Part shown: piece by piece, positions 684 to 10,458 of the stretch
Position numbering within the stretch: the stretch's first letter is position 1
How the letters are laid out: each line of letters begins with the position of its first letter
From: a candidate division WOR-3 bacterium
GTDB lineage: Bacteria; Hydrothermota; Hydrothermia; B15-G9; WFZT01
Assembly (NCBI GenBank): GCA_027053075.1
Contig: JALUEE010000077.1
Coordinates: forward strand, 1-10,501
Length of the DNA stretch: 10,501 bases
Direction of reading: 5' to 3'
Program-made: the position numbers and the translations under genes
The notes under the pieces: generated by a model
Told to the model about the DNA's origin: nothing
What the model saw: the letters and a program-made list of their open reading frames with translations, nothing else
Database searches by the model: none

Positions 684-1493
684 TCAAAACACTGTCCCGG
701 CAAATCTCTCCTCTACTTCCCTGAGCTTACTGTATGGGAACACGGGGCCATCGATACATACATAGTAGGGCCCTATTCTACAATGACCACATTTTCCAAC
801 AGCACATTTCATATGATGCTCAAGCGAAAGGTAAATATTCTCTTCCCTGAACCCAAGCTCTAAGAGCCTTTTCACAGTGTAATACATCATGATTCCCGGA
901 CCGCACATTAAAGCAACTGAGTTGTAGGGATGTACCCGCTCAGGCCTCAGGAGATTGGTAACAACACCCACTTCTCCGCCCCAACTTCCATCTCCCACAT
1001 CCACCGTTAGATAAATGTCGATTTTATCCTTGAGCTCATTGAGAAGTTGCTTATATACAATATCCGCTGGAGTCCTTGCTCCGTAGAAGAGGCTGATTTT
1101 GTTCTTGCCCAGTACCTCGAGGATCACCGACATAAGCGGTGGCAGTCCTATTCCACCACCAACAAATACAAGATTTTTCTCACCAAACTCTTGAAGTGGG
1201 AATCCGTTGCCGAAAGGCCCCCTCAGTCCAATAGTGTCACCCACCTTTTTCTCAAAAAGAGCAGAAGTAACCGTGCCCACTTTCTTTACTGTAAAAACAA
1301 GCTCGTCACTTTTCGAAGGTGAAGCTATTGAAATGGGAATTTCGCCAACTCCCGGCACCCAGAGCTCAGCAAATTGTCCCGGTGTGTGACCTGCCCAGCC
1401 GTCTTTATCGAAGTAAAATGACCTCGTATCAGGAGTCTCCTCGACAATCTTTTTAATCTCCTCCAAAACCGGTTTGAATAGCGCGTGTCTCAT
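684..1493 (-). CDS. FAD/NAD(P)-binding oxidoreductase, AsrB / sulfhydrogenase gamma (HydG) / PyrK-like subunit
   Basis: 269 aa with an FAD-binding barrel (PGQF..W..GVGEIPISIAS, GLRGPFGNGF), an NAD-binding GGGIGLPP motif, MCGPGIMM and the C-terminal [2Fe-2S] motif MKCAVGKCGHC..YVCIDGPVF. Start overlaps the upstream stop (ATGA, 1490-1493). Confidence 0.9.
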   Translation of the reverse strand: MRHALFKPVLEEIKKIVEETPDTRSFYFDKDGWAGHTPGQFAELWVPGVGEIPISIASPSKSDELVFTVKKVGTVTSALFEKKVGDTIGLRGPFGNGFPLQEFGEKNLVFVGGGIGLPPLMSVILEVLGKNKISLFYGARTPADIVYKQLLNELKDKIDIYLTVDVGDGSWGGEVGVVTNLLRPERVHPYNSVALMCGPGIMMYYTVKRLLELGFREENIYLSLEHHMKCAVGKCGHCRIGPYYVCIDGPVFPYSKLREVEERFAGTVF

Positions 1494-2503
1494 AAGCCCT
1501 CCTCCCTGTCCATAAGAATGAGAAGTGATTCCATGTGGGCATCACCAATGCATGTCTGAATACATCTGCCGCAGCCTGTGCACGAAATCCTGCCATAAGG
1601 CTTGTTGATCTCCGGTGAGAGCTTGCATTCAAATCTAAACTGCATCCGGGAAGCTGCATCAGGCTTGGGATTTGACCCTGCCATTCGGTGGTATCCCTCA
1701 AGCAAACAGGAATCCCATTCCCTCCTCTGCTCTATATGGTCCTCAAACTGAAGGTCGAAGGTGTTAAAGCAGGAACAGGTTGGACACAGGTAATTGCACC
1801 CGCCGCATTTAAGGCAGAACTTGCCGAGCTCGCGCCAGATTTTTGAATCCTTGGAAACCTTAAAGTTGTAAAGATGCTTTTCTGCCCATGGACGCGGTGT
1901 GAATTTTTTAAGCGTTTCTCCTATCCTTTGCATGAGTTTTTCAATGAGCTCCTCTTCTGCATCCGGGAAGGAGCTGAGATAATCTTTGCCGGCCTTACTT
2001 CCGTGCTCTGCAAGGTAAATACCGTTCCCCACATCATTCACCTGAATATCAAAGCCGCTCTTTGCCACAGGGCCAGCCCCTGCCTCTTTGCAAAAACAGG
2101 TGGGAAGTGGGTCAAAACACGAAAATGTAACAAGAAGCGTATTCTCTCTCCTCGCCTTGTAATACGGGTCAGGGATATTGCCAAGATAGAATTTGTCTAA
2201 TATCAAAAGCCCCTCAAGGTCACAGGGACGAATTCCAAAAATCACCTTCTTCTTTGAAACTTCCTCGCTTTCCAGTTTTTCCCTGTATAACTTCAGCGTG
2301 GTCGCTTCCTGCGGGAAAAAGAAATCTTTTGGCGGCTTAAGCGTATTCACAAAACCGTCAAAGTCGCATTCACTGAAGGTTTCAACAGGGTTGAAAAAGA
2401 AATCGCCGCCATAGGGGGCACGTTTGGGGCCATAAATCTCATACCCCTCGTTTTTCCAGATTTCAAAAAGTTTTTCAAAATCCTGAGCAGTTAGCTTTTT
2501 CAT
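1490..2503 (-). CDS. 4Fe-4S dicluster protein, AsrA / sulfhydrogenase beta (HydB)-like subunit
   Basis: 337 aa with family motifs PPKDFFFP, FGIRPCDL, PDPYY..RRENT, C..P.PTCFC, CLKCGGCNYLCPTCSCF, R.WDSC and CTGCGRCIQTC. ATGA overlap with the FDH stop (2500-2503). Confidence 0.9.
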   Translation of the reverse strand: MKKLTAQDFEKLFEIWKNEGYEIYGPKRAPYGGDFFFNPVETFSECDFDGFVNTLKPPKDFFFPQEATTLKLYREKLESEEVSKKKVIFGIRPCDLEGLLILDKFYLGNIPDPYYKARRENTLLVTFSCFDPLPTCFCKEAGAGPVAKSGFDIQVNDVGNGIYLAEHGSKAGKDYLSSFPDAEEELIEKLMQRIGETLKKFTPRPWAEKHLYNFKVSKDSKIWRELGKFCLKCGGCNYLCPTCSCFNTFDLQFEDHIEQRREWDSCLLEGYHRMAGSNPKPDAASRMQFRFECKLSPEINKPYGRISCTGCGRCIQTCIGDAHMESLLILMDREEGL

Positions 2504-4536
2504 GATTCCTCCAGTTCAATTTTTACGGCCGCGACCTTTAAATCTGGCATTTTGGAATATGGATCAAGCGTGTTAGGCATCAGCAGGTTTACAGGTTCCT
2601 CAGGGAAATGCATGGGCATGAATGCCGTGTGTTTGCTCAACGAACCAAATTTCACGATGGCATGAATCCTGCCGCGTCGGGATTCGATTCTCACCCTCAT
2701 TCCTTCCCTTATACCCAATTCCTGCGCTTCGGATTTGTTCATAACAATATAGGGTTTCGGATATTCCCTCGAAAGTTCCGGGCTCTTGCCGGTCATGCTC
2801 CCAACATGCCAGTGGAAACCATGCCTGCCGGTAACAAGATAAAATGGATACTCGTCGTTTCTTTCATCAGAAGGTGGTCTGTAATGGACGAGGTGGAATT
2901 TCCCCTTACCTCTCGCAAAATTACCATCTTTGTGAAGATAAGGAGTACCCAGATGGTCCTTTGACCTTACAGGCCACTGGAGTCCCCATCTATATTCGAG
3001 TCTATCATAAGAAACCCCAGCGTAGATGGGCACGAGTGTTGCAATCTCATCCATAATTTCGGATGGATGGCTGTAATTCCAGTCGAATCCCATCTTTCTT
3101 GCAATCATGGACATTATTTCCCAGTCGGGCTTTGCCTCTCCTGGTGGGTCAACTGCCTTGCGAATCCTCTGGATTCTCCTTTCGGTATTGGTAAAAGTGC
3201 CGTCTTTTTCCGCCCATAGAGCGGCAGGGAGAATAATATCCGCCAGCTCCGCTGTTTTTGTCATAAAAATGTCCTGAACCACGAGAAATTCAAGGGATTT
3301 GAGTGCCTTCTGCACACGGGAGGCATCCGGGTCTGTCAGCACCGGGTCCTCTCCTGTTATGTACATGGCTTTTATCTTCCCCTCTAAAATCGCATCTGGA
3401 TACTCGCCGATGGTTAGTCCAGGGGTTGTCGGGATTTTTACACCCCATACCTTTTCAAATTTCTCTACCGTTTCGGGGTCAGTGTATCTCTGATAACCGG
3501 GGAGGAATTCAGCAAGAACTGCCATATCCGAGGCACCCTGAACGTTGTTCTGTCCGCGAAGTGGATTTACACCTGTGGACGGTTTCCCTATATTTCCGGT
3601 CAGGAGGGCAAGGTTTGCAAGGGAAAGCACGTTCTCGGTTCCCGTAAGATGCTCTGTAACACCGAGGCAGTAAATGATGGAAGCGGGCTCAATGGTCGCA
3701 TACATACGCGCAACCTTCTCAACAAGGTCAAGAGAAATTCCTGTGATTCCGGGAACACTTGAGAGGTCAAAGTCCTTGAGGAATTTCAAATACTCGTCAA
3801 ATCCCTCTGTGTGCTCTCTGATGAATTGCTCGTTGTGAAGCCCGTTCTCGACAATGATTTTTGCCATTGCTGTAAAAAGGATTATGTCAGAATTGGGCTG
3901 CAATGGAAGATGAATATCAGAAATTTCAGCAAGGTCGGTGCTACGCGGGTCAACCACCACAAGCTTTGCCCCTTTCCGGATAGCTCTGATAATTCTACGA
4001 GCAATCAGAGGATGTGCCTCAGTGGTATTTGCACCTACAACGAGCAGCATCTTTGCGTCTTCGATTTCGGCAATGGAGTTTGTCATGGCACCTGAGCCAA
4101 ATGCCATGGAGAGTCCGGTTACAGTGGGGGAATGGCAAATTCTTGCGCAATGGTCAACGTTATTTGTTCCAAGCACGGCACGTGCAAATTTCTGGATAAG
4201 GAAGTTTTCTTCGTTGGTGTATCTCGCGGAGCCGATGACTGCAAAGGCATCCGGGCCGTATTTGTCCTTAATCTCCTGGAATTTTTCTGCAACGATGGAG
4301 ATTGCCTCGTCCCACGAGATGCGCTTGAATTGTGAGCCTTCCTTTTTGAGCGGGAACTTCAACCTGTCCGGGTGGTGGATGGTTTGATACGCATGCCACC
4401 CCTTAATGCAGAGTCCACCCTCATTTATTGGGTGATTTAAAGATGGGGTGAGGCCAACCACCCGGCCATCTGATACCTCCAGATAGAAGTTACACCCTAC
4501 GGCACAGTAGGGACAAACTGTTAGGACCTGTTTCAT
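2500..4536 (-). CDS. fdhF: Formate dehydrogenase catalytic alpha subunit (FdhF/FdhA type, Mo/W-bis-PGD, Cys ligand)
   Basis: N-terminal CPYCAVGC..GLCIKG [4Fe-4S] motif, active-site NVDHCARICH, LRGQNNVQGA, EKDGTFTNTERR and a C-terminal molybdopterin-binding domain. Start placed at ATG 4536 (MKQVLTVC) because an AAGGAG RBS precedes it. No Tat signal, so likely cytoplasmic. Confidence 0.93.
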   Translation of the reverse strand: MKQVLTVCPYCAVGCNFYLEVSDGRVVGLTPSLNHPINEGGLCIKGWHAYQTIHHPDRLKFPLKKEGSQFKRISWDEAISIVAEKFQEIKDKYGPDAFAVIGSARYTNEENFLIQKFARAVLGTNNVDHCARICHSPTVTGLSMAFGSGAMTNSIAEIEDAKMLLVVGANTTEAHPLIARRIIRAIRKGAKLVVVDPRSTDLAEISDIHLPLQPNSDIILFTAMAKIIVENGLHNEQFIREHTEGFDEYLKFLKDFDLSSVPGITGISLDLVEKVARMYATIEPASIIYCLGVTEHLTGTENVLSLANLALLTGNIGKPSTGVNPLRGQNNVQGASDMAVLAEFLPGYQRYTDPETVEKFEKVWGVKIPTTPGLTIGEYPDAILEGKIKAMYITGEDPVLTDPDASRVQKALKSLEFLVVQDIFMTKTAELADIILPAALWAEKDGTFTNTERRIQRIRKAVDPPGEAKPDWEIMSMIARKMGFDWNYSHPSEIMDEIATLVPIYAGVSYDRLEYRWGLQWPVRSKDHLGTPYLHKDGNFARGKGKFHLVHYRPPSDERNDEYPFYLVTGRHGFHWHVGSMTGKSPELSREYPKPYIVMNKSEAQELGIREGMRVRIESRRGRIHAIVKFGSLSKHTAFMPMHFPEEPVNLLMPNTLDPYSKMPDLKVAAVKIELEES

Positions 4537-4556
4537 AAAAGAGCTCCTTTTGAGTG

Positions 4557-4586
4557 ATTTTATGACAACCAATCAAAACCTGTCAA
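4557..4586 (-). promoter_or_regulatory. Sigma70-type promoter of the fdh operon
   Basis: TTGACA (4586-4581)-N18-TAAAAT (4562-4557), directly upstream of the RBS. Confidence 0.65.
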
Positions 4587-4596
4587 GTGAAGGCAA

Positions 4597-4743
4597 GCCT
4601 GTTTGAAAATTCACTTTCTGTAATCTACATTCTCGGAACAACTGGCTCCACGACCCCGCTCCCACTCGCTTTGCAAGTGGGAGCGGGGTCGTGGGCGGGA
4701 AGGGGCATTGCGCTTGAAAATTAAAAATTCAAGATGAAGATCA
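4597..4743 (-). repeat. Hairpin-bearing repeat element, subfamily A
   Basis: End motif GCCTGTTTGAAAA at 4597-4609 and a 22-bp stem hairpin at 4648-4694 with one mismatch. 4721-4736 is the exact reverse complement of 397-412. Flanks are homologous to 9421-9548. Confidence 0.7.
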
Positions 4744-4784
4744 CCTGCCACTGGTTTTATCTTTCAATTTATCCAGGAAATTCA

Positions 4785-5128
4785 GCCTGTTCGAAAATGT
4801 TCCTCTGGTTATTTTGTAGCTACGAGTGAATAGATTTACTAAAAAGTGAGGTTAAACAAGTTTCTACAAGCATTGTAAGTAGAGAACTCCCTCCCTTCCT
4901 CCGGAAGGGAGGGTTGGGGTGGAATGGATAAATGTGATATCAATGTATGTTCAGGAATATAGCTCCATTAGACATTCCAAATCCAAGAATTGTTAATTTT
5001 ACCCCATTCTCCCCTGCCCCTCCTTCCCCGGGGAAGGAGGGAGAATTTTCGATGGGTCTGCTACAATTAATGGGATTATGAGAGTCTTTTAAAAAGATGC
5101 AACTTAAATTTAGGTATTTCTAACAGGG
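4785..5128 (-). mobile_element. MITE-like element, subfamily B copy 1 (344 bp), with imperfect TIRs and two inverted GC-rich hairpin units
   Basis: Ends are GCCTGTTCGAAAA (4785-4797) and ATTTCTAACAGGG (5116-5128). Its reverse complement is colinear with 9553-9916 along the whole length. Hairpin units at ~4887-4927 and ~5001-5045 face each other. Confidence 0.8.
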
Positions 5129-5138
5129 TCCAGGAAAT

Positions 5139-5186
5139 ATGTGGCCCCTTCTTTATCCTCTCCCCATGAGTATTTATGTGGGGGGC
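5139..5186 (-). repeat. REP-like hairpin, subfamily D (degenerate)
   Basis: Minus strand reads GCCCCCCACATAAATACTCATGGGGAGAGGATAAAGAAGGGGCCACAT, colinear with 274-320. Confidence 0.6.
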
Positions 5187-5247
5187 TTTTGGAAATGGAC
5201 ATACTCAAAGAGGGTTATACAGCCTCAGAACCATCAACCTCGCCCGA

Positions 5248-5364
5248 GCTAGTTCAAAAATTCCCCCCTATCCTCCCCCACGCACAAAGTGCGTGGGGGG
5301 AGGAATAAGGTGGGGGGCAAATTTTTCATTAAAAATCAAAGGTTTTGCAATTTTTCGAACAGGC
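5248..5364. mobile_element. Mini MITE-like element, subfamily C (117 bp)
   Basis: Ends are GCTAGTTCAAAAA (5248-5260) and TTTTCGAACAGGC (5352-5364). Central hairpin TCCTCCCCCACGCAC-AAA-GTGCGTGGGGGGAGGA at 5271-5304. Confidence 0.7.
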
Positions 5365-5398
5365 TCACCCCGCCCCATAGCAAAGCTCTGGTGATTGA

Positions 5399-6691
5399 TC
5401 AGGATGATTTCTGGTTGTCAGATTTGTCGATGTCTCTAACTATTTCATCAAAGTACTTTATAAAGATGTCCACAACATGGGGATCAAATTTCTTTCCACT
5501 CTGTTCTTTGAGGTATTCAAGGGCTTTCTCTTTCGGCCACGCCTTCCTGTAAGGACGGTCGGTCGTAAGGGCATCCCAGTTGTCAGCCACGGCAAAAATT
5601 CTGGCTGGTAATGGAATCTCCTCACCCTTCAATCCCTCGGGATAACCCGTGCCGTCCCAGTTTTCATGATGATAAAGTGGAATTGCAAGTGCAGGTCTGA
5701 GGGGTTCAAGGTCCTTCAGCATTTCATAAGCATAAATAGGGTGTCTATTCATAATGGCCCTTTCCTCTGGTGTGAGGGGACCGGGTTTGAACAAAATATC
5801 ATCTGGAATGGCTATTTTGCCAATATCGTGGAGCAATGCCCCATAGTGCACATACCTAATTTCTTCCTCATTAAGGCCCAATTTCCTGGCAAGATTAACA
5901 GAAATATTTGTCACTCTGCGACTGTGTCCTTCAGTCTCTCTATCTCTTAGTTCCAGCATTCGGGCCCAGCCCTCGAGCGTTGCCTGATATGCTTTTTCAG
6001 CCTCAGATCGCATATAATTTATTGCTTCAACCACGCTGGTTAGCTCGTCATTTTTCGTATATTTGTTAACGGGGCGATTTAAAGTTAAAGGAGGCTGATA
6101 CTTTCCCAATTTGAGATTCCTTGTATATTCCTTGATCGTTATCAAATGCCTGGAAACGAGACGCCAGAACAGATGTATGATCCCAACAGTGATAATAAAC
6201 ATCAGCAATACACTCTGAAGGAAGAAGGTCAGAAAGGAGGACACAGTTTCCCTGAGAGCCGCCTCTTTTGAGGCGACAACAGTAAGCTTGCCGAGATAAA
6301 CTTTTTTATCCCCGTCCTGATAATATAGAGGTATTGTCTTTTCTATGTCATTGTGATGACCACGAGGCGGTTTCCCGGCACTGACAATTGTATTCCCGTG
6401 TTCGTCAGTAATCTGAACAAACACAATATTATCATTGAGCAAAAATCCCTTTACTATGAGGGCAAGCTCCCGGGTATCATATATCCATAAGCTTTGTTCA
6501 ATGGATGATTCACTGGTTTTAACGATATTATCAACTGTATTCTCGATAATGGACACTTTGCTTCGGTAGTACCGATAAGACAAAACGAACGAAAGCACTA
6601 TTGCGGTTATCATCCCCAGGGAGACCACATATAGTGCGAAACGCTTTCCTATTTCACTTTTTAATTCTTCCAGCTTTGGCATCAATCTCAC
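5399..6691 (-). CDS. Membrane-anchored HD-GYP c-di-GMP phosphodiesterase (2 TM, extracytoplasmic sensor, HAMP-like linker)
   Basis: Two hydrophobic helices flanking a ~110 aa domain, a HAMP-like segment (NDEL..V..AIN.M), then ETEGHSRRV, LLHDIGK, HHENWDGTGYPEGL and DALTTDRPY. GTG 6691 overlaps the upstream stop (GTGA); ATG 6682 is an alternative start. Confidence 0.92.
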   Translation of the reverse strand: MRLMPKLEELKSEIGKRFALYVVSLGMITAIVLSFVLSYRYYRSKVSIIENTVDNIVKTSESSIEQSLWIYDTRELALIVKGFLLNDNIVFVQITDEHGNTIVSAGKPPRGHHNDIEKTIPLYYQDGDKKVYLGKLTVVASKEAALRETVSSFLTFFLQSVLLMFIITVGIIHLFWRLVSRHLITIKEYTRNLKLGKYQPPLTLNRPVNKYTKNDELTSVVEAINYMRSEAEKAYQATLEGWARMLELRDRETEGHSRRVTNISVNLARKLGLNEEEIRYVHYGALLHDIGKIAIPDDILFKPGPLTPEERAIMNRHPIYAYEMLKDLEPLRPALAIPLYHHENWDGTGYPEGLKGEEIPLPARIFAVADNWDALTTDRPYRKAWPKEKALEYLKEQSGKKFDPHVVDIFIKYFDEIVRDIDKSDNQKSS

Positions 6692-7629
6692 TTCTTGTTA
6701 TAAACATCTGGGCTCGGTAACCCGGCGTTTTCGATAATATGCTGAATAGTTCCATCCAACTGCATCTGATGAATGGTTTTATTGAAATCATCGATTATCT
6801 TTACATACGGCGAACCTTTTCTAATTAGAAGCCTGAAAGCGATGGTGCTCAAAGGGTATGGATTTACAATGATCTGTTTGTATCCTTCCGACAGTGAATC
6901 TCCAATTCTTATTTTCTTTCTGATGAAGTATGCCCCAGTAAACCCGTTGGCAATATAAACATCTGCGCGACCTTTAATGAGCATAAAAAATGCATTATCC
7001 ATGTCTGGCACCCAGATTATTTTGGCCCCCTGCAGGTTTTCTTCCGTCCATCCAGAGCCAATCGTTTCAACTACCCTAAATGACCGGAGTTGTTTTAGAG
7101 ATCTGATAGCCATGATTTCATCTATACGAGGGTCATTCCTATTTGCGAATATCTCTTCAGAGGCGAGAAGAATGGGGTCGGAGGCTACAAAATACCGCTT
7201 TCGTTTTTTTGTGAGGGCTGTAACCAGCCCATCGGCGTCACCTTCAATTACGATTTTCTGGGCTCGGGGCCATGGGTAAAGTCTTACTTTATGAGGAATT
7301 CCCATACGCTGGAATGCTTCATTTACTATTTCATAAAAAATGCCGGCAGGCTTTCCGTCCGGTCCACGATAGATAAGTGGTGGATAATTTTCATCATCCA
7401 CCCAGCAAAACGGCCTTTTCCCCCTCACTGAAGGAGCTGGTGGAACTGACTTAGAAATGGTTGTGGACGACGCAGATGTTTCTGCCTGCTCAGGAGTGGG
7501 ATTGACCAAAACGAGTGTATCGGCTTTGGATAAAGGGGTAGGCTGGGGTTTATGTTGCCTGCAAACTGAGAGTAAGACAACTAAATCAACGATAATGACT
7601 AAAACAACATATAGAATAAACCTTTTCAT
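6688..7629 (-). CDS. Extracytoplasmic solute-binding protein (SBP family 3-like) with N-terminal membrane anchor and Pro/Ser/Thr-rich linker
   Basis: Hydrophobic N-terminus and a PST-rich linker, then NYPPLIY..DGKPAGIFYEI, YPWPRA....EGDADG, ML.KGRADV and DFNKTI.QM..DGTIQ.I, typical of SBP_bac_3. Strong AGGAGGTG RBS upstream. Confidence 0.85.
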   Translation of the reverse strand: MKRFILYVVLVIIVDLVVLLSVCRQHKPQPTPLSKADTLVLVNPTPEQAETSASSTTISKSVPPAPSVRGKRPFCWVDDENYPPLIYRGPDGKPAGIFYEIVNEAFQRMGIPHKVRLYPWPRAQKIVIEGDADGLVTALTKKRKRYFVASDPILLASEEIFANRNDPRIDEIMAIRSLKQLRSFRVVETIGSGWTEENLQGAKIIWVPDMDNAFFMLIKGRADVYIANGFTGAYFIRKKIRIGDSLSEGYKQIIVNPYPLSTIAFRLLIRKGSPYVKIIDDFNKTIHQMQLDGTIQHIIENAGLPSPDVYNKK

Positions 7630-7839
7630 TCTATCACCTCCTGCTACGGAAGGGAATGGATCTATGCCCTGCCCCTTCCACTATTAACTTAATTTCAAGA
7701 TAGCGCACTCAGCAACCTCTTATTGCTGGCTGATAAATGCGATTTTTCTCTGTTAAAATCATATTCATCTCAGGGATGTCAGATTTTAAAAAGGGCCTGC
7801 AACTACTGTCATTCATTAGAATTAGCGTAAATTGGTCTT

Positions 7840-7869
7840 TTTATAAAGTTATTTAACTTTATATGTCAA
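7840..7869 (-). promoter_or_regulatory. Putative sigma70 promoter of the SBP/HD-GYP operon
   Basis: TTGACA (7869-7864)-N18-TATAAA (7845-7840); implies a leader of about 200 nt. Confidence 0.5.
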
Positions 7870-7879
7870 GAAGGGATCA

Positions 7880-7950
7880 GCTTGTTCGAAAATGTAGCCT
7901 CCGCCCCCACGCACTTCGTGCGTGGGGGCGGAGGCAGGTGTGAGGATGGG
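7880..7950. repeat. Subfamily C-related repeat: end motif plus perfect 18-bp hairpin
   Basis: 7877-7895 matches 4782-4800 at 18/19 positions. Stem 7897-7914/7918-7935 with loop TTC shares the CCCCCACGCAC/GTGCGTGGGGG core with 5275-5299. No clear second end. Confidence 0.7.
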
Positions 7951-7962
7951 AAAAGCTATGGA

Positions 7963-7992
7963 TTGACCGGACCGTTGTTCAAGTATTAGAAT
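7963..7992 (+). promoter_or_regulatory. Putative sigma70 promoter of cfa
   Basis: TTGACC (7963-7968)-N18-TAGAAT (7987-7992). Confidence 0.5.
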
Positions 7993-8026
7993 TTGATTGA
8001 AAGGTTATTTAAAAAGGAGGATGAAA

Positions 8027-9319
8027 ATGAGTGAAAAAGCTGTTTCAGAAGTTTTAAACGTTGTAAATGACCTTTTTAAAGGGGTGAAGAAAAACTTTAA
8101 AGTGGTTCTATGGGATGGCACAGAGGTGCCGGCAGACACGGAGCCGGCATTTACCCTGAAAATTAACTATCCGTGCGCCCTGTGGCATGCACTCGTCCCA
8201 CCTACTGACCTGTCAATGGGTGAAGCATATCTTTACAACTTGATTGATATTGAAGGAGATATTTATCAGATCTTTCCACTGGCCGAAAAAATCAAGGAAA
8301 ACTTTAAAAATCCTGTTGTTGCGGCAAAGCTGGGGGTTCATCTTTTAAAGCTTAAGAAGTACAACGACGAGTGTAAAAAGGCTATCAAAGAAAAGAGGGA
8401 GGCAAGGTTAAAGGGGAAGAAACATTCAATAGAAAGGGATCGAGAGGCAATTTCCTACCATTATGATGTTTCAAACGAATTTTACAAACTTTTTCTGGAT
8501 AAAAACCTCGTCTATTCCTGTGCCTATTTTCCCACAGGCACTGAGGACCTGGATACGGCACAGGAGCTCAAGCTTGATTACATCTGCCGCAAACTTCAGC
8601 TAAAACCCGGAGAAAAACTCCTGGACATCGGCTGTGGATGGGGAGCCCTTGTCATCCACGCAGCGAAACACTATGGAGTTGAAGCACTGGGTATAACCCT
8701 GAGTAAGAACCAGTACGAATACGCCAACGAATGGATCAAGAGGGAGGGGCTCGAGGGCAGGGTAAGAGTTGAGTACCTTGATTACCGTGAGGTCAAGCCT
8801 CCTGAGGGTGGGTTTGATAAGCTTGTGAGCGTTGGGATGTTTGAGCATGTAGGCGAGGAAATGCTTGAGAAATACTTTAAAAAGGCGTGGGAGATACTTA
8901 AGCCAGGCGGGATTTTCCTGAACCATGGCATTGCGTGCAGATGGAAAGACTGCGGATTTCATGAAAACTCATTCACAAACAAATATGTCTTCCCAGATGG
9001 TGAGTTGCTTGCCATAAGCACCACTCTCCATTATGCGGAGAAAACTGGATTCGAAGTGAGAGATGTGGAGTCTCTGAGAGAGCATTACGCGAGAACTCTG
9101 AAATTCTGGGTAGAAAGGCTTGAAAAGCATCACGATGAGGCGTTGAAATACGTGGACGAGGTAACCTACCGCATCTGGCGCCTTTTCATGTCCGGCTCTT
9201 CCTATGGATTTGATACAGGAAGACATAATCTGTATCAGACAATCCTTGTAAAGCCGGATAATGGAAAGAGTGGAATGCCCTGGAGCCGAAACTATCTCTA
9301 TAAGGATGGGAAATTTTAG
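8027..9319 (+). CDS. cfa: Cyclopropane-fatty-acyl-phospholipid synthase family SAM methyltransferase
   Basis: ISYHYDVSNEFY, YSCAYF, AQ..KLD.ICRKL.LKPGE.LLDIGCGWG, SVGMFEHVG, KYVFPDGEL and HYARTL..W. AAGGAGG RBS at 8014-8020 supports ATG 8027. Confidence 0.9.
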   Translation: MSEKAVSEVLNVVNDLFKGVKKNFKVVLWDGTEVPADTEPAFTLKINYPCALWHALVPPTDLSMGEAYLYNLIDIEGDIYQIFPLAEKIKENFKNPVVAAKLGVHLLKLKKYNDECKKAIKEKREARLKGKKHSIERDREAISYHYDVSNEFYKLFLDKNLVYSCAYFPTGTEDLDTAQELKLDYICRKLQLKPGEKLLDIGCGWGALVIHAAKHYGVEALGITLSKNQYEYANEWIKREGLEGRVRVEYLDYREVKPPEGGFDKLVSVGMFEHVGEEMLEKYFKKAWEILKPGGIFLNHGIACRWKDCGFHENSFTNKYVFPDGELLAISTTLHYAEKTGFEVRDVESLREHYARTLKFWVERLEKHHDEALKYVDEVTYRIWRLFMSGSSYGFDTGRHNLYQTILVKPDNGKSGMPWSRNYLYKDGKF

Positions 9320-9420
9320 ATTTTGCTGAGACTCTCTGGATGCTGGTCAATGTAACTAATCCCAAGTTGCAAAAGTGCATGTGTTTAGAGTCAAAATTCC
9401 TACATTTCGGACAGATACTC

Positions 9421-9548
9421 TGAGTTTAACTTGAATATTTCCAAACGCAAATGATTTCTCTCCCCCCGCATAAATTCCTTGCAGGGGAAAGGACATAAAT
9501 ACAGTTGTTCTGAAAATACAGATATGTAGACCGAATTTTCAAACACAT
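9421..9548 (+). repeat. Hairpin-bearing repeat element, subfamily A flanks with a D-type hairpin
   Basis: 9502-9548 (CAGTTGTTCTGAAAAT..GAATTTTCAAACA) matches the reverse complement of 4597-4644, and 9421-9453 matches the reverse complement of ~4705-4743. Central degenerate hairpin at 9458-9492. Confidence 0.65.
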
Positions 9549-9552
9549 TTAA

Positions 9553-9916
9553 GCTTGTTCGAAAAATCCTGAATTTTAGTTACCACTTTTACCAATGGAT
9601 CCCCGTAATCTCACTCACAATCGCAGACCAGTCTGTAAATGCCCCTACTTCCTTGCGGAAGGAGAGGCCAAGGGAGAATGGGGAAATATTGACACTCAGA
9701 ATGCCTGATGGGCCAATATTTATGACCATGTCCGGATAGTTTTTTAACTAAAAATTTTTTCATTTTACCACAGCCCTCCCTTCCTTAGTAAGGAAGGGAA
9801 ATCCCATGCCTGTTATGAGCTAATTGGAGAATCCCGAATCACTTAATTTTTACGAATCCATCACTTTTCTCCTAACTCTATTCACCTTGATGAGAGGATA
9901 ATGTTTCCGGACACTC
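9553..9916 (+). mobile_element. MITE-like element, subfamily B copy 2 (364 bp)
   Basis: Ends are GCTTGTTCGAAAA (9553-9565) and TTTCCGGACACTC (9904-9916). Colinear with the reverse complement of 4785-5128 (shared blocks GCAGACC, GGAAGGAG.GG.CA.GGGAGAATGGGG, GAATG.CT.ATGG, CCCTCCCTTCC, TCACTTTT, TCTATTCAC, AGAGGA). Confidence 0.8.
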
Positions 9917-9926
9917 TCGAAAGTTG

Positions 9927-9955
9927 TTGACATTGAGTGGGGGTGAGTGTATGCT
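9927..9955 (+). promoter_or_regulatory. Sigma70 promoter of csp
   Basis: TTGACA (9927-9932)-N17-TATGCT (9950-9955). Confidence 0.7.
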
Positions 9956-10032
9956 TGTCTTTCAACGAGGGAATTTAACCTACCTTGGTCAGGTTCCCCA
10001 AAAGTAAAAAGAAGTTAAGGAGGAAGTATAAA

Positions 10033-10248
10033 ATGGCAGAAGTAAAGTATGGTAGAGTCAAATGGTTTGACTCTCGTAAAGGATATGGATTCATAGAGCT
10101 GGAAGACGGCTCTGGAGACGTGTTTGTCCATTTCACTGACATTCAGGGAATGGGCTACAGGACGCTGGAAGAAGGTCAGAAGGTCAAATTTGAAATCATA
10201 CAGACAGACAAAGGACCAAAAGCAGCAAATGTAGAAGCAGTTGAATAA
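10033..10248 (+). CDS. csp: Cold-shock protein (CspA family), 71 aa
   Basis: [15 protein letters not shown] (RNP1), DVFVHF (RNP2), L.EGQKV.F and KGP.AANV. AAGGAGG RBS at 10017-10023. Confidence 0.96.
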
Positions 10249-10265
10249 GAGACTGTGAAAACGAT

Positions 10266-10310
10266 TTGAGGGGTGGCGCGCGCAAAGCGCGCGCCACCCC
10301 TCAATTTTTT
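10266..10310 (+). terminator. Intrinsic terminator of csp
   Basis: Perfect 18-bp stem (10266-10283/10287-10304) with loop AAA, followed by T6, 17 nt after the stop codon. Confidence 0.8.
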
Positions 10311-10324
10311 CTCCCCCCCACTGA

Positions 10325-10417
10325 TACTGTTAGAAAAAACTCAAATCCATTAATTTTTGTTGAAAAAAATTGCCCCCACCTATTTCCCTGACCTCACCCA
10401 CGAATTTTGAAAAAATT
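10325..10417 (+). repeat. Subfamily C degenerate copy lacking the central hairpin
   Basis: 10325-10367 matches the reverse complement of 5322-5364 at 32/43 ungapped positions, continues through TTGCCCCCACC.ATT.CC and ends in GAATTTTGAA. Confidence 0.6.
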
Positions 10418-10429
10418 ATGTATTACTAC

Positions 10430-10458
10430 TTGACAGTCCTCATAAAATGTGTAACAAT
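10430..10458 (+). promoter_or_regulatory. Putative promoter for a gene beyond the window
   Basis: TTGACA (10430-10435)-N17-AACAAT (10453-10458). Confidence 0.4.

Follow-up and report, generated by a model that had tools for sequence, protein, structure and literature searches.

The window, that is, the whole 10,501-nucleotide stretch of DNA analyzed here, contains two diverged repeats that are gene-less, non-autonomous MITEs bounded by a 15-bp TIR. The most specific feature of these elements, missing from an earlier sequence-only reading of the stretch, is their insertion against the -35 box. We hold it to be highly probable that they are MITEs of an ISAae1-like IS5-type IS, likely moved in trans and likely placed at sigma70 -35 boxes, and that the doublet of hairpins they enclose is likely cargo.

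Two diverged copies of one MITE family

The sequence-only reading had proposed two colinear elements, at 4785-5128 (minus strand) and 9553-9916 (plus strand), that align end to end despite their divergence. This is borne out by an alignment with 228 identities in 334 aligned columns, which scores 262 as against 63 ± 13 for 300 dinucleotide shuffles, none of which reached 262 (z = 14.8). The internal ungapped block of 23 matches in 32 that had also been noted was found in this alignment, counted by eye. Two refutation checks were run. Similarity beyond the hairpins is significant in both the left (z = 8.8) and the right flank (z = 4.4), the spacer stripped of the purine tails having no significance alone (z = 0.8, a score reached by 64 of 300 shuffles), and the source genome (G000) holds 24 full-length copies of this doublet family, 291-377 bp long, among 176 nhmmer matches. 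The true bounds lie 2 bp further out at each end, as listed here with the other relevant features of the window.

4783..5130, minus strand: MITE copy A of the doublet family, 348 bp, TIRs at 4783-4797 and 5116-5130
4774..4782, plus strand: left TSD of A, 9 bp with 1 mismatch, right copy at 5131-5139
9551..9918, plus strand: MITE copy B, 368 bp, TIRs at 9551-9565 and 9904-9918 (degenerate)
4595..4782, plus strand: left portion of a TIR-bounded element that is older and belongs to another class (TIR match, likeness to a MITE class)
4557..4586, minus strand: molybdopterin-oxidoreductase operon promoter (TTGACA-18-TAAAAT), its -35 box at offset 8 relative to the TIR at 4595
5246..5366, minus strand: 121-bp MITE with the same TIR, a 9-bp TSD and a different hairpin
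7864..7940, plus strand: decayed MITE end, TIR at 7878
9433..9550, plus strand: terminus of a decayed, older element that adjoins B
9927..9955, plus strand: sigma70-type promoter of cspA, TTGACA-17-TATGCT, -35 box beginning 8 nt past the end of B
10033-10248: cold-shock domain gene cspA
10327..10458, plus strand: remnant of a MITE class of about 124 bp, then TTGACA-17-AACAAT at 10430

Neither A nor B contains an ORF of at least 60 aa, and mismatches in their 15-bp TIRs number 1 and 3 for A, 2 and 4 for B. A was inserted into the older element at 4595..4782, a junction spanned without A in 8 of 72 BLAST matches; its paralogous empty sites show a single target copy followed by TTGATA, and an orthologue 97% identical to A is present in the sister genome (G004). 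B has no TSD and adjoins, on its left, the end of an older element. It is missing at the orthologous site of the sister genome, where the counterpart of 9433..9550 is followed immediately by the cspA target and TTGACA, and one contig of run X9 also passes over it. Since B has no TSD, its absence from the sister genome could correspond to a deletion between direct-repeat TIRs.

Among 45 elements with the common 15-bp TIR and a TSD, the latter is 9 bp long in 35 and 10 bp in 10. TSD mismatches over 238 TIR pairs are bimodal, with 35 pairs at 0-1 mismatch and a main peak at 6-7; within the doublet family, where some ends were mis-set by indels when flanks and TSDs of the 24 copies were scored, 12 of 24 have a TSD with at most one mismatch. 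Six of 16 tested elements of the sister genome face a source-genome site with one target copy, none of these six clean empty sites coming from the doublet family. Conversely, the 121-bp MITE at 5246..5366 is absent from the sister genome, where its target stands as one copy. Six TIR pairs lie back to back, 9-12 nt apart. The following hallmarks of MITEs were thus found: TIRs, a TSD, short non-coding multicopy elements, an autonomous partner with shared ends, and filled/empty polymorphism.

An ISAae1-like IS shares the ends of the MITEs

That an IS5-type DDE transposase is the mover, as had been suggested, now appears likely, since an intact IS with identical TIRs exists in the sister genome (G004:C168:4933-5993). 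This 1061-bp IS has TIRs with no mismatch to the MITE TIR and a perfect 10-bp TSD, and encodes a 309-aa DDE_Tnp_1 protein (PF01609 above cut-off) that is 40% identical to the transposase of ISAae1 (WP_010880899.1), the nearest named one. In the source genome we found decayed copies (contigs C33 and C75) and no intact transposase. The IS5 family is recognized by a DDE triad with a Y-x2-R-x3-E-x6-K motif around the catalytic E, and the sister-genome transposase carries both; in an alignment of 14 sequences, D112 is invariant, and D188, Y239, R242, E246 and K253 are conserved in at least 90%. The curated IS5 HMM was not passed (best NF033579, 104.4 bits, cut-off 140), and we therefore label the enzyme IS5-like, ISAae1 clade. 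Foldseek gave the best E-values to ISCth4 and the best TM-score to Tn5. With this IS the MITEs have in common only the ends; its transposase likely moved them in trans.

Insertion is preferentially next to the -35 box

At 65 of 273 TIR flanks, the last base of the TSD coincides with the first T of a sigma70 TTGACA box. When these flanks were scored for TTGACA at 5/6 or better, offset 8 gave 42 matches and offset 9 gave 23, with at most 6 at any other of 40 offsets. A -10 box (TAnnnT, spacer 16-18) follows at 50 of the 65 targeted sites, compared with 369 of 3476 non-coding TTGACA-like controls (77% vs 10.6%), the offset peak and the -10 excess having p values of about 1e-61 and 4e-37. The offset follows TSD length, TSDs of 9, 10 and 11 bp placing the -35 at offset 8, 9 and 10, respectively; 15 cases fall at 9 bp and offset 8, 8 at 10 bp and offset 9, and 3 elsewhere. 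Consequently, one of the two junctions keeps a fixed position relative to the promoter, and the other varies by 1-2 bp. Insertion spares the promoter core and leaves genes unbroken, and repeat insertions are stacked at the same site. In the window, the decayed end at 7864..7940 lies upstream of a solute-binding-protein gene and has, at offset 8, a minus-strand TTGACA (7869-7864).

The targeting is preferential rather than strict. One of the 65 flank matches is a neighboring TIR instead of a promoter (C77:9551), and only 9 of the 24 doublet-family copies reach 5/6 for the -35 box, 5 on the beta and 4 on the alpha side (as the two hairpin motifs are called below), that is, with no orientation bias. 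Copy A itself has today no -35 at offset 8 or 9, and its fit depends on the paralogous empty sites reading TTGATA.

The same geometry extends to related IS in six phyla, where 10 of 17 loci read by eye are -35-adjacent. Among full-length related IS with a perfect TSD, 9 of 18 score at least 5/6 and 5 of 18 at most 3/6. The geometry fits 4 of 9 TSD-bearing copies in genome G206, 3 of 14 flanks in G204 and 1 of 8 in G202, and the plasmid copy of ISAae1 (NC_001880.1) reads TTTACA at offset 8.

How would such placement come about? In the explanation we favor, the IS transposase, acting in trans, would place the MITE so that the last TSD base becomes the first T of the -35 box. Within it, it is somewhat better than an even bet that promoter-bound RNA polymerase guides the transpososome, probably through sigma70 region 4, the holder of the -35 box; recognition of TTGACA directly by the transposase is a weaker, still sizeable, possibility. 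Stated as a full rival with the same MITE and enzyme, direct reading of TTGACA-like DNA would leave the -10 excess to the purging of coding-region insertions, which we regard as possible but doubtful. A sequence-specific contact would give precisely the constant register of the last TSD base on the first T, 15 of the 65 fitting sites have weak -10 boxes, and A went into TTGATA inside another repeat. However, the -10 excess persists against non-coding controls, so purging from genes alone is insufficient, and several sites with only 4/6 at the -35 own a correctly spaced -10.

It is improbable that insertion was random and -35 adjacency arose by later selection, for example for a UP-like tract or an insulating terminator in the MITE end. 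The TIR does carry an A/T tract, which precedes the start of the -35 box by about 20-25 nt, and one hairpin scores as terminator-like, but selection of this kind is hard to square with single-base precision tied to TSD length, the lack of orientation bias, stacking at one site, and the recurrence of the geometry in full-length IS of six phyla with unrelated interiors.

The hairpin doublet is a separate repeat class

The sequence-only reading had described two CCCTCCYTTCC-type hairpins per element. Both elements indeed have two, with purine tails pointing inward; the consensus is loose for B, because both its hairpins are degenerate. Each hairpin with its tail forms a putative triplex motif.

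5001..5042, minus strand: alpha (type-A-like) motif of A, hairpin 5018-5042, mirror purine tail 5001-5017, mirror score 10/11
4889..4932, plus strand: beta (type-B-like) motif of A, hairpin 4889-4913, mirror purine tail 4914-4932, mirror score 10/11
9643..9684, plus strand: alpha motif of B, degenerate, mirror score 8/11
9755..9798, minus strand: beta motif of B, degenerate, mirror score 6/11

Genome-wide, the mirror tail scores at least 9/11 in 87 of 113 hairpin units, the opposite side never exceeding 8; all 43 inverted doublets pair alpha with beta, and the second loop of alpha is TTA in 38 of 70. By these features of sequence the hairpins are putative BoxC/PIT-type triplex motifs and probably not GTAG/CGTC REPs; no tetranucleotide foot of that kind was seen by eye in the hairpin alignments. 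Of the 113 units, 57 have no TIR within 330 nt, a count that speaks against a mobilization needing both parts; a TIR lies on one or both sides of 23 of 29 tails-in doublets. Hairpins and tails are better conserved (0.81-0.94) than the flanks (0.58-0.69), and hairpins better than TIRs. This may reflect selection on structure, as had been hinted at, but the stems are invariant and do not covary. The doublet is a distinct class of repeat, spread genome-wide and with the geometry of a DUF559 cassette that lacks its gene, and the picture of a TIR-bounded MITE holding a captured inverted doublet of REP-like hairpins is supported.

Mobilization as a REPIN by an HUH RAYT, or in a mode requiring both TIRs and hairpins, had been suggested, and both now look very improbable. 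The inverted geometry would suit them, as would the stem of at least 10 bp that 37 of 44 TIR elements carry. Yet no Y1/RAYT (PF01797) gene was found in the 95%-complete source genome, the control being positive in 6 of 14 genomes, and the 9-10-bp TSDs stand at the TIRs and not at the hairpins. A hairpin of the doublet type is missing from the autonomous IS (best stem 9 bp), the hairpins of other MITE classes with the same TIR differ, and two copies (C40:15321-15560 and C109) have lost the doublet by apex-to-apex collapse to one tail-less hairpin with intact MITE flanks. The doublet is therefore likely captured cargo, dispensable for movement.

A structured non-coding RNA family is the least credible reading of all. 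Hairpin conservation and RNA folding of A (z = -2.7) would speak for it; folding of B reaches only z = -1.6, Rfam gave no match at gathering level, and the covariation check that had been proposed came back negative, with invariant stems and no alternative Watson-Crick pair at 21 stem positions in 19 copies. Nor are purine-motif triplexes expected in RNA, in which passages of PMC4666352 state that they do not form.

A more open alternative, which we consider unlikely though well short of negligible, is a two-tier element in which the doublet is a mobile gene-less BoxC/DUF559 cassette that inserts at the hairpin apex and has landed in, or cycles through, the MITE. The two collapsed copies would fit it, as would the higher conservation of hairpins than of TIRs. 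A link between the hairpin class and DUF559 had been anticipated, and the source-genome DUF559 gene does lie between tails-in motifs, those of G032 and G034 being bracketed by hairpin-tail repeats. Against this, slippage between two similar palindromes could yield the same collapse, the doublet occupies one fixed position in all full-length copies, and no DUF559 was found in the sister genome (89% complete) despite its 42 exact hairpins. In the explanation we favor, the alpha and beta doublet would simply have been captured as a passenger by the MITE.

Implications and comparison with known systems

The enzyme would be a compact DDE transposase, 309 aa long, whose target is anchored to promoters with single-base precision, its family and spacing differing from those of the promoter-targeting IS in the literature found. 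It would represent a second, independent promoter-homing route for bacterial transposons. Docking of a transposase on the RNA polymerase initiation complex could then be tested in a small system, and a natural promoter-mapping or safe-harbor tool might come of it. Upstream DNA has been displaced at dozens of promoters in the lineage (65 flanks), including that of cspA. A broader proposal, speculative and on balance unlikely, is a nested two-enzyme mobile system: an IS5-like clade in at least six phyla would dock on sigma70 holoenzyme, docking having evolved independently with one strand-transfer site locked to the first base of the -35, and its MITEs would deliver BoxC/triplex cassettes that are gene-less DUF559 module ends with their own apex-to-apex gain and loss. 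If this were true, the upstream regulatory DNA of many promoters would have been rewritten with the core untouched.

The nearest relative is ISAae1 of Aquifex aeolicus, an IS5-like element of about 1 kb with a near-identical TIR and a 9-bp TSD; the window elements differ in encoding no protein and share only its ends. A full-text literature search returned no paper on ISAae1, and hence no described target preference.

In the literature found, -35 targeting is described only for Mutator-type IS. p-MULT3 (ISLre2/TnGBS) and the ISKra4-group Mutator-like elements generate 8-9-bp direct repeats and land at a constant distance upstream of sigmaA -35 boxes, in both orientations when their IRs are symmetric; a contact with the RNA polymerase initiation complex has been proposed for them (PMC3942029). 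Fixed-distance insertion upstream of housekeeping-sigma promoters is common to both systems. Their distance to the -35 is 13-17 bp with a peak at 16 (PMC3942029), as in one ISLre2 site that we read by eye, whereas here it is 8-10 and the TSD overlaps the box; offsets 13-17 each account for at most 5 of our 273 TIR flanks. The enzymes differ too, D188 and E246 being 58 aa apart as opposed to the 99-138-aa insert of the Mutator type, whose C/D(2)H motif 11-19 aa after D2 is absent here. No ISLre2, ISKra4 or IS256 model appears in the NCBIfam match list of our transposase.

Coxiella QMITE2 is a MITE with TIRs, 7-9-bp direct repeats and a GTAG REP palindrome targeted by an IS110-family element, and passages of PMC10969869 on it describe no -35 targeting. 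Here, too, an IS110 is located inside a MITE, of the 124-bp class (contig C14 of the source genome).

As passages of PMC4666352 describe them, BoxC/PIT/TMECO repeats are pyrimidine-purine hairpins with a 3-nt second loop and a mirror purine tail, TMECO being intergenic, with two types (TTA and CCG-like loops), A always with B in inverted doublets. Our motifs share the hairpin and mirror tail, the two loop types, the A and B inverted pairing and the intergenic location. They differ in stem sequence, and exact TMECO matches number none in the window and six elsewhere in the source genome, so we file them as a TM-like variant. MITE carriage would offer a spreading route for these unexplained repeats, notable because the same passages report the E. 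coli motif without association to transposons, phages or plasmids. Here, most tails-in doublets adjoin a TIR.

REPINs, finally, are inverted hairpin doublets with a spacer that resemble the ends of an enzyme-bearing cassette. The 43 inverted doublets of palindromes found here are alike in this, whereas the TIRs and TSDs bear the signature of a DDE-type enzyme, and the gene bracketed by the motif class encodes DUF559.

A and B belong to one MITE family

The sequence-only reading had proposed that two elements of the window align from end to end despite their divergence, and this is borne out: A and B are identical at 228 of 334 aligned columns (z = 14.8 when compared with 300 dinucleotide-shuffled sequences), and the left (z = 8.8) and right (z = 4.4) flanks are both significantly similar without the hairpins. 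The A/B similarity is a real feature; in the same shuffle test, the spacer between the purine tails is not significant (z = 0.8). The true ends of the two copies are as follows.

4783-5130, minus strand: MITE copy A
9551-9918, plus strand: MITE copy B

Collecting all genomic copies, as that reading had advised, yielded 24 full-length copies among 176 matches to a profile built from 10 copies in the genome of the window (G000; 2.44 Mb in 114 contigs, 95% complete, the window being contig C77), with a mean pairwise identity of 73% among the 19 best-scoring copies. They belong to a larger set of 45 elements, 93-1868 bp long, with a common 15-bp TIR and a TSD of 9 bp (35 elements) or 10 bp (10 elements), TSD mismatch being bimodal over 238 TIR pairs. 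At least five further members or remnants of this set lie inside the window. The neighbouring genes (684-4572 and 5399-9319) are ordinary: an operon of molybdopterin oxidoreductase, 4Fe-4S and NAD-binding proteins, a CHASE5/HD-domain protein with a solute-binding protein, and a cyclopropane fatty-acid synthase. Downstream of the operon, GC-rich hairpin repeats of other types form an array (40-600). The sequencing run that best covers the window is labeled hydrothermal vent metagenome.

An IS5-like insertion sequence has the ends of the MITEs

The sister congener G004 carries a 1061-bp insertion sequence (C168:4933-5993) whose two TIRs match the MITE consensus at every base. It is flanked by a perfect 10-bp TSD and contains an ORF of 309 aa. 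The encoded transposase matches PF01609 above and NF033579 (IS5) below the cut-off, is 40% identical to that of ISAae1, and displays the residues D112/D188/E246 together with a Y-x2-R-x3-E-x6-K motif. Its predicted structure (pLDDT 86.8) resembles DDE transposases, with the best E-values for ISCth4 and the best TM-score, 0.54, for Tn5. A profile search for the clade gives 865 matches at E ≤ 0.001, and a metagenome scan with the single protein as query returned one truncated locus. In G000, this partner IS survives as decayed copies only. Since MITEs and IS have just 17-25 nt of end in common, the MITE interiors are best seen as captured DNA. Genome G206 holds 15 related IS copies (L161-L175) with TSDs of 9 to 11 bp; the six without a TSD suggest recombination between copies.

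Other candidates fared less well. No RAYT gene was found in the 95%-complete G000, which speaks against the RAYT-type mobilization envisaged from the hairpins, and the IS1182/DDE_Tnp_1_6 gene on contig C46, a family also put forward in that reading, has ends unrelated to the MITE. The same is true of the IS256 gene on C46 (L005 524-1720), which contains one internal stop and is nested among other IS fragments. An ISLre2/ISKra4 element was rejected by model searches, in two of which the controls matched nowhere and in another of which the ISLre2 model exceeded its cut-off in 5/151 genomes. An 1868-bp TIR element (C14:7052-8919; L004 553-2420) proved to be a MITE of the small, ~124-bp class with an IS110 inside; this IS110 looks intact (431 aa, NF033542 above cut-off) and adjoins the MITE hairpin, so that MITE cargo appears to have served as its landing site. 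A match on a Thermus plasmid has no clear element ends. Five G000 loci (C11:4138, C54:42886, C68:3209, C73:31022 and C76:2877) carry a repeated end motif, similar to the TIR but distinct, that possibly marks another IS or MITE family.

Filled and empty sites

The MITE DNA family is present, among 41 genomes, in G000 and G004 only (two further matches span just 21-30 nt), and the exact TIR pattern is abundant in these two only among 201 genomes searched; six other genomes of the phylum have single pattern matches (seven loci), inside genes and with no partner TIR. For 6 of the 16 G004 elements tested, the partner IS included, G000 has an empty site with one target copy. B and a 121-bp MITE of the window are missing in G004, and one contig of run X9 skips B. 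A is common to both genomes and is inserted in an older element that has paralogues free of A: 8/72 matches cross the junction without A, and none of the contigs aligned to A gives a clean joint skipping it. At 4540-4600, the gene preceding the element that begins at 4595 is not the one found in G004 (L007), which marks a rearrangement breakpoint at the TIR.

Elements often insert next to the -35 box of promoters

We define the offset as the distance from the outer end of a TIR to the start of a TTGACA box. The 45 elements with a confirmed TSD provide 90 outward flanks; in these, TTGACA (≥5/6 bases) occurs at offset 8 in 15 and at offset 9 in 8, with at most 3 at any other offset and a background of 0.65% per position. 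Likewise, among 273 PWM-defined TIRs (31 in the reversed genome), TTGACA lies at offset 8 in 42 and offset 9 in 23, with at most 6 elsewhere. TSD length and offset are paired as (9,8) 15 times, (10,9) 8 times and otherwise 3 times, with (11,10) in another genome. As the offset follows TSD length, the duplication ends on the first T of the -35 box. Examples in the window are as follows.

9551-9918, plus strand: B, ending 8 nt before TTGACA-17-TATGCT of the cspA promoter
4595 and 7878: TIRs with TTGACA 8 nt away

A does not fit the rule today; two paralogous empty sites have TTGATA at that position. The stretch 9881-10301 gives a sub-threshold Rfam match to the cspA thermoregulator (43.7 bits, gathering 78), and B lies directly upstream of the cspA promoter; all other Rfam matches in the window are chance ones. 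As read by eye, a third congener, G002 (L110), has at the same cspA promoter an independent, diverged TIR element with a hairpin array of another kind, whose end lies 9 nt upstream of TTGACA; G001 and G003 have no intact element at this promoter. Six back-to-back TIR pairs were found.

The fit is lower in the doublet family of A and B (9/24 copies) and varies elsewhere (G206, 4/9; G204, 3/14; G202, 1/8; G203, 5/11); related genomes are not independent, though their insertion sites differ. The rule was read by eye in 10 of 17 loci of related IS, whose record titles name Aquificaceae/Aquificales, Kaiserbacteria, Armatimonadetes, Thermodesulfobacteriaceae, Thermotogaceae and Dehalococcoidia. A set of 18 full-length IS copies, each with a perfect TSD (17 chosen for having a TSD, 6/15 G206 copies without one being dropped, plus the partner IS), gives 9 matches at ≥5/6, 4 at 4/6 and 5 at ≤3/6. 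In the ISAae1 copy of NC_001880.1, TTTACA starts at offset 8; this copy has the same flanks as one of the 18 and so adds no further case.

Targeted sites are also rich in -10 boxes: TAnnnT follows at a spacer of 16-18 in 50/65 fitting TIR flanks, compared to 369/3476 non-coding and 1041/28309 coding TTGACA-like sites. Because of this excess, we favor guidance of insertion by promoter-bound sigma70 holoenzyme over a pure sequence readout of the target by the transposase.

Hairpin units and doublets

Each unit is a pyrimidine/purine hairpin with a 3-nt loop and a tail mirroring the purine arm by G*G, A*A or T*A triplets only, that is, a triplex motif of the BoxC/PIT-like class. The mirror-tail score is 10/11 for both A units, 8 and 6 for the B units, and at least 9/11 in 87/113 genome units. 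There are 70 alpha units (loop TTA in 38) and 67 beta units (loop almost always with a final G), and inverted doublets pair alpha with beta in 43/43, as types A (TTA) and B (CCG) are arranged in E. coli TMECO according to section 18 of PMC4666352. Tails-in doublets have a TIR in 23/29 cases and tails-out doublets in 1/14; 57/113 units have no TIR nearby, and in two copies the doublet has collapsed apex to apex. The hairpin retention from which selection on structure had been suggested is genuine, in that hairpins and tails are conserved better than flanks and TIRs, and no compensatory change accompanies it. Such a pattern is expected from selection, from gene conversion among the >100 units and from enzyme-driven renewal alike.

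DUF559 genes flanked by such hairpins, suspected in the same reading, do occur: that of G000 (C26; L001 1000-2100) has tails-in BoxC-like motifs on both sides, including exact TMECO-type units, and those of G032 and G034 are bracketed by related repeats, with similar bracketing in L181 and L182. PF04480 matches in 4/41 genomes (one match left uninspected) and not in G004, and a search on DUF559 with repeats returned nothing pertinent. In G204, from another phylum (L077-L106; 173 exact TIR-pattern matches), MITE interiors again hold REP-like and BoxC-like palindromes.

Proposed mechanism and relation to known systems

Seen as a MITE with triplex-motif cargo, the proposed hybrid of TIRs and hairpins is largely accounted for: the MITE holding a hairpin doublet stands, and the second mobilization mode is not supported. 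The MITEs would be mobilized in trans by the partner enzyme, with promoter-bound holoenzyme guiding insertion, and the hairpins would be cargo, probably acquired because the intergenic DNA in which the MITEs lie is also filled with REP-like arrays. Such insertion would leave the core promoter intact, displace upstream elements and stack elements with one target copy between them, as the back-to-back TIR pairs might illustrate.

MITEs bearing REP palindromes are already known, as PMC10969869 reports for QMITE2. An exact-phrase search of the open-access literature, with ISfinder/TnPedia and subscription journals outside its scope, returned no paper that describes IS5-type elements inserting directly against the -35 box. 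The finding that merits further work is the base-precise targeting of promoters by this IS5-like clade. Promoter targeting is alike in p-MULT3/ISKra4 (PMC3942029), but both the enzyme and the distance differ here (the ISLre2 offset of 16 being one site read by eye, and Table S2 of that paper possibly bearing on its convention for measuring distance), and the likeness therefore looks like convergence.
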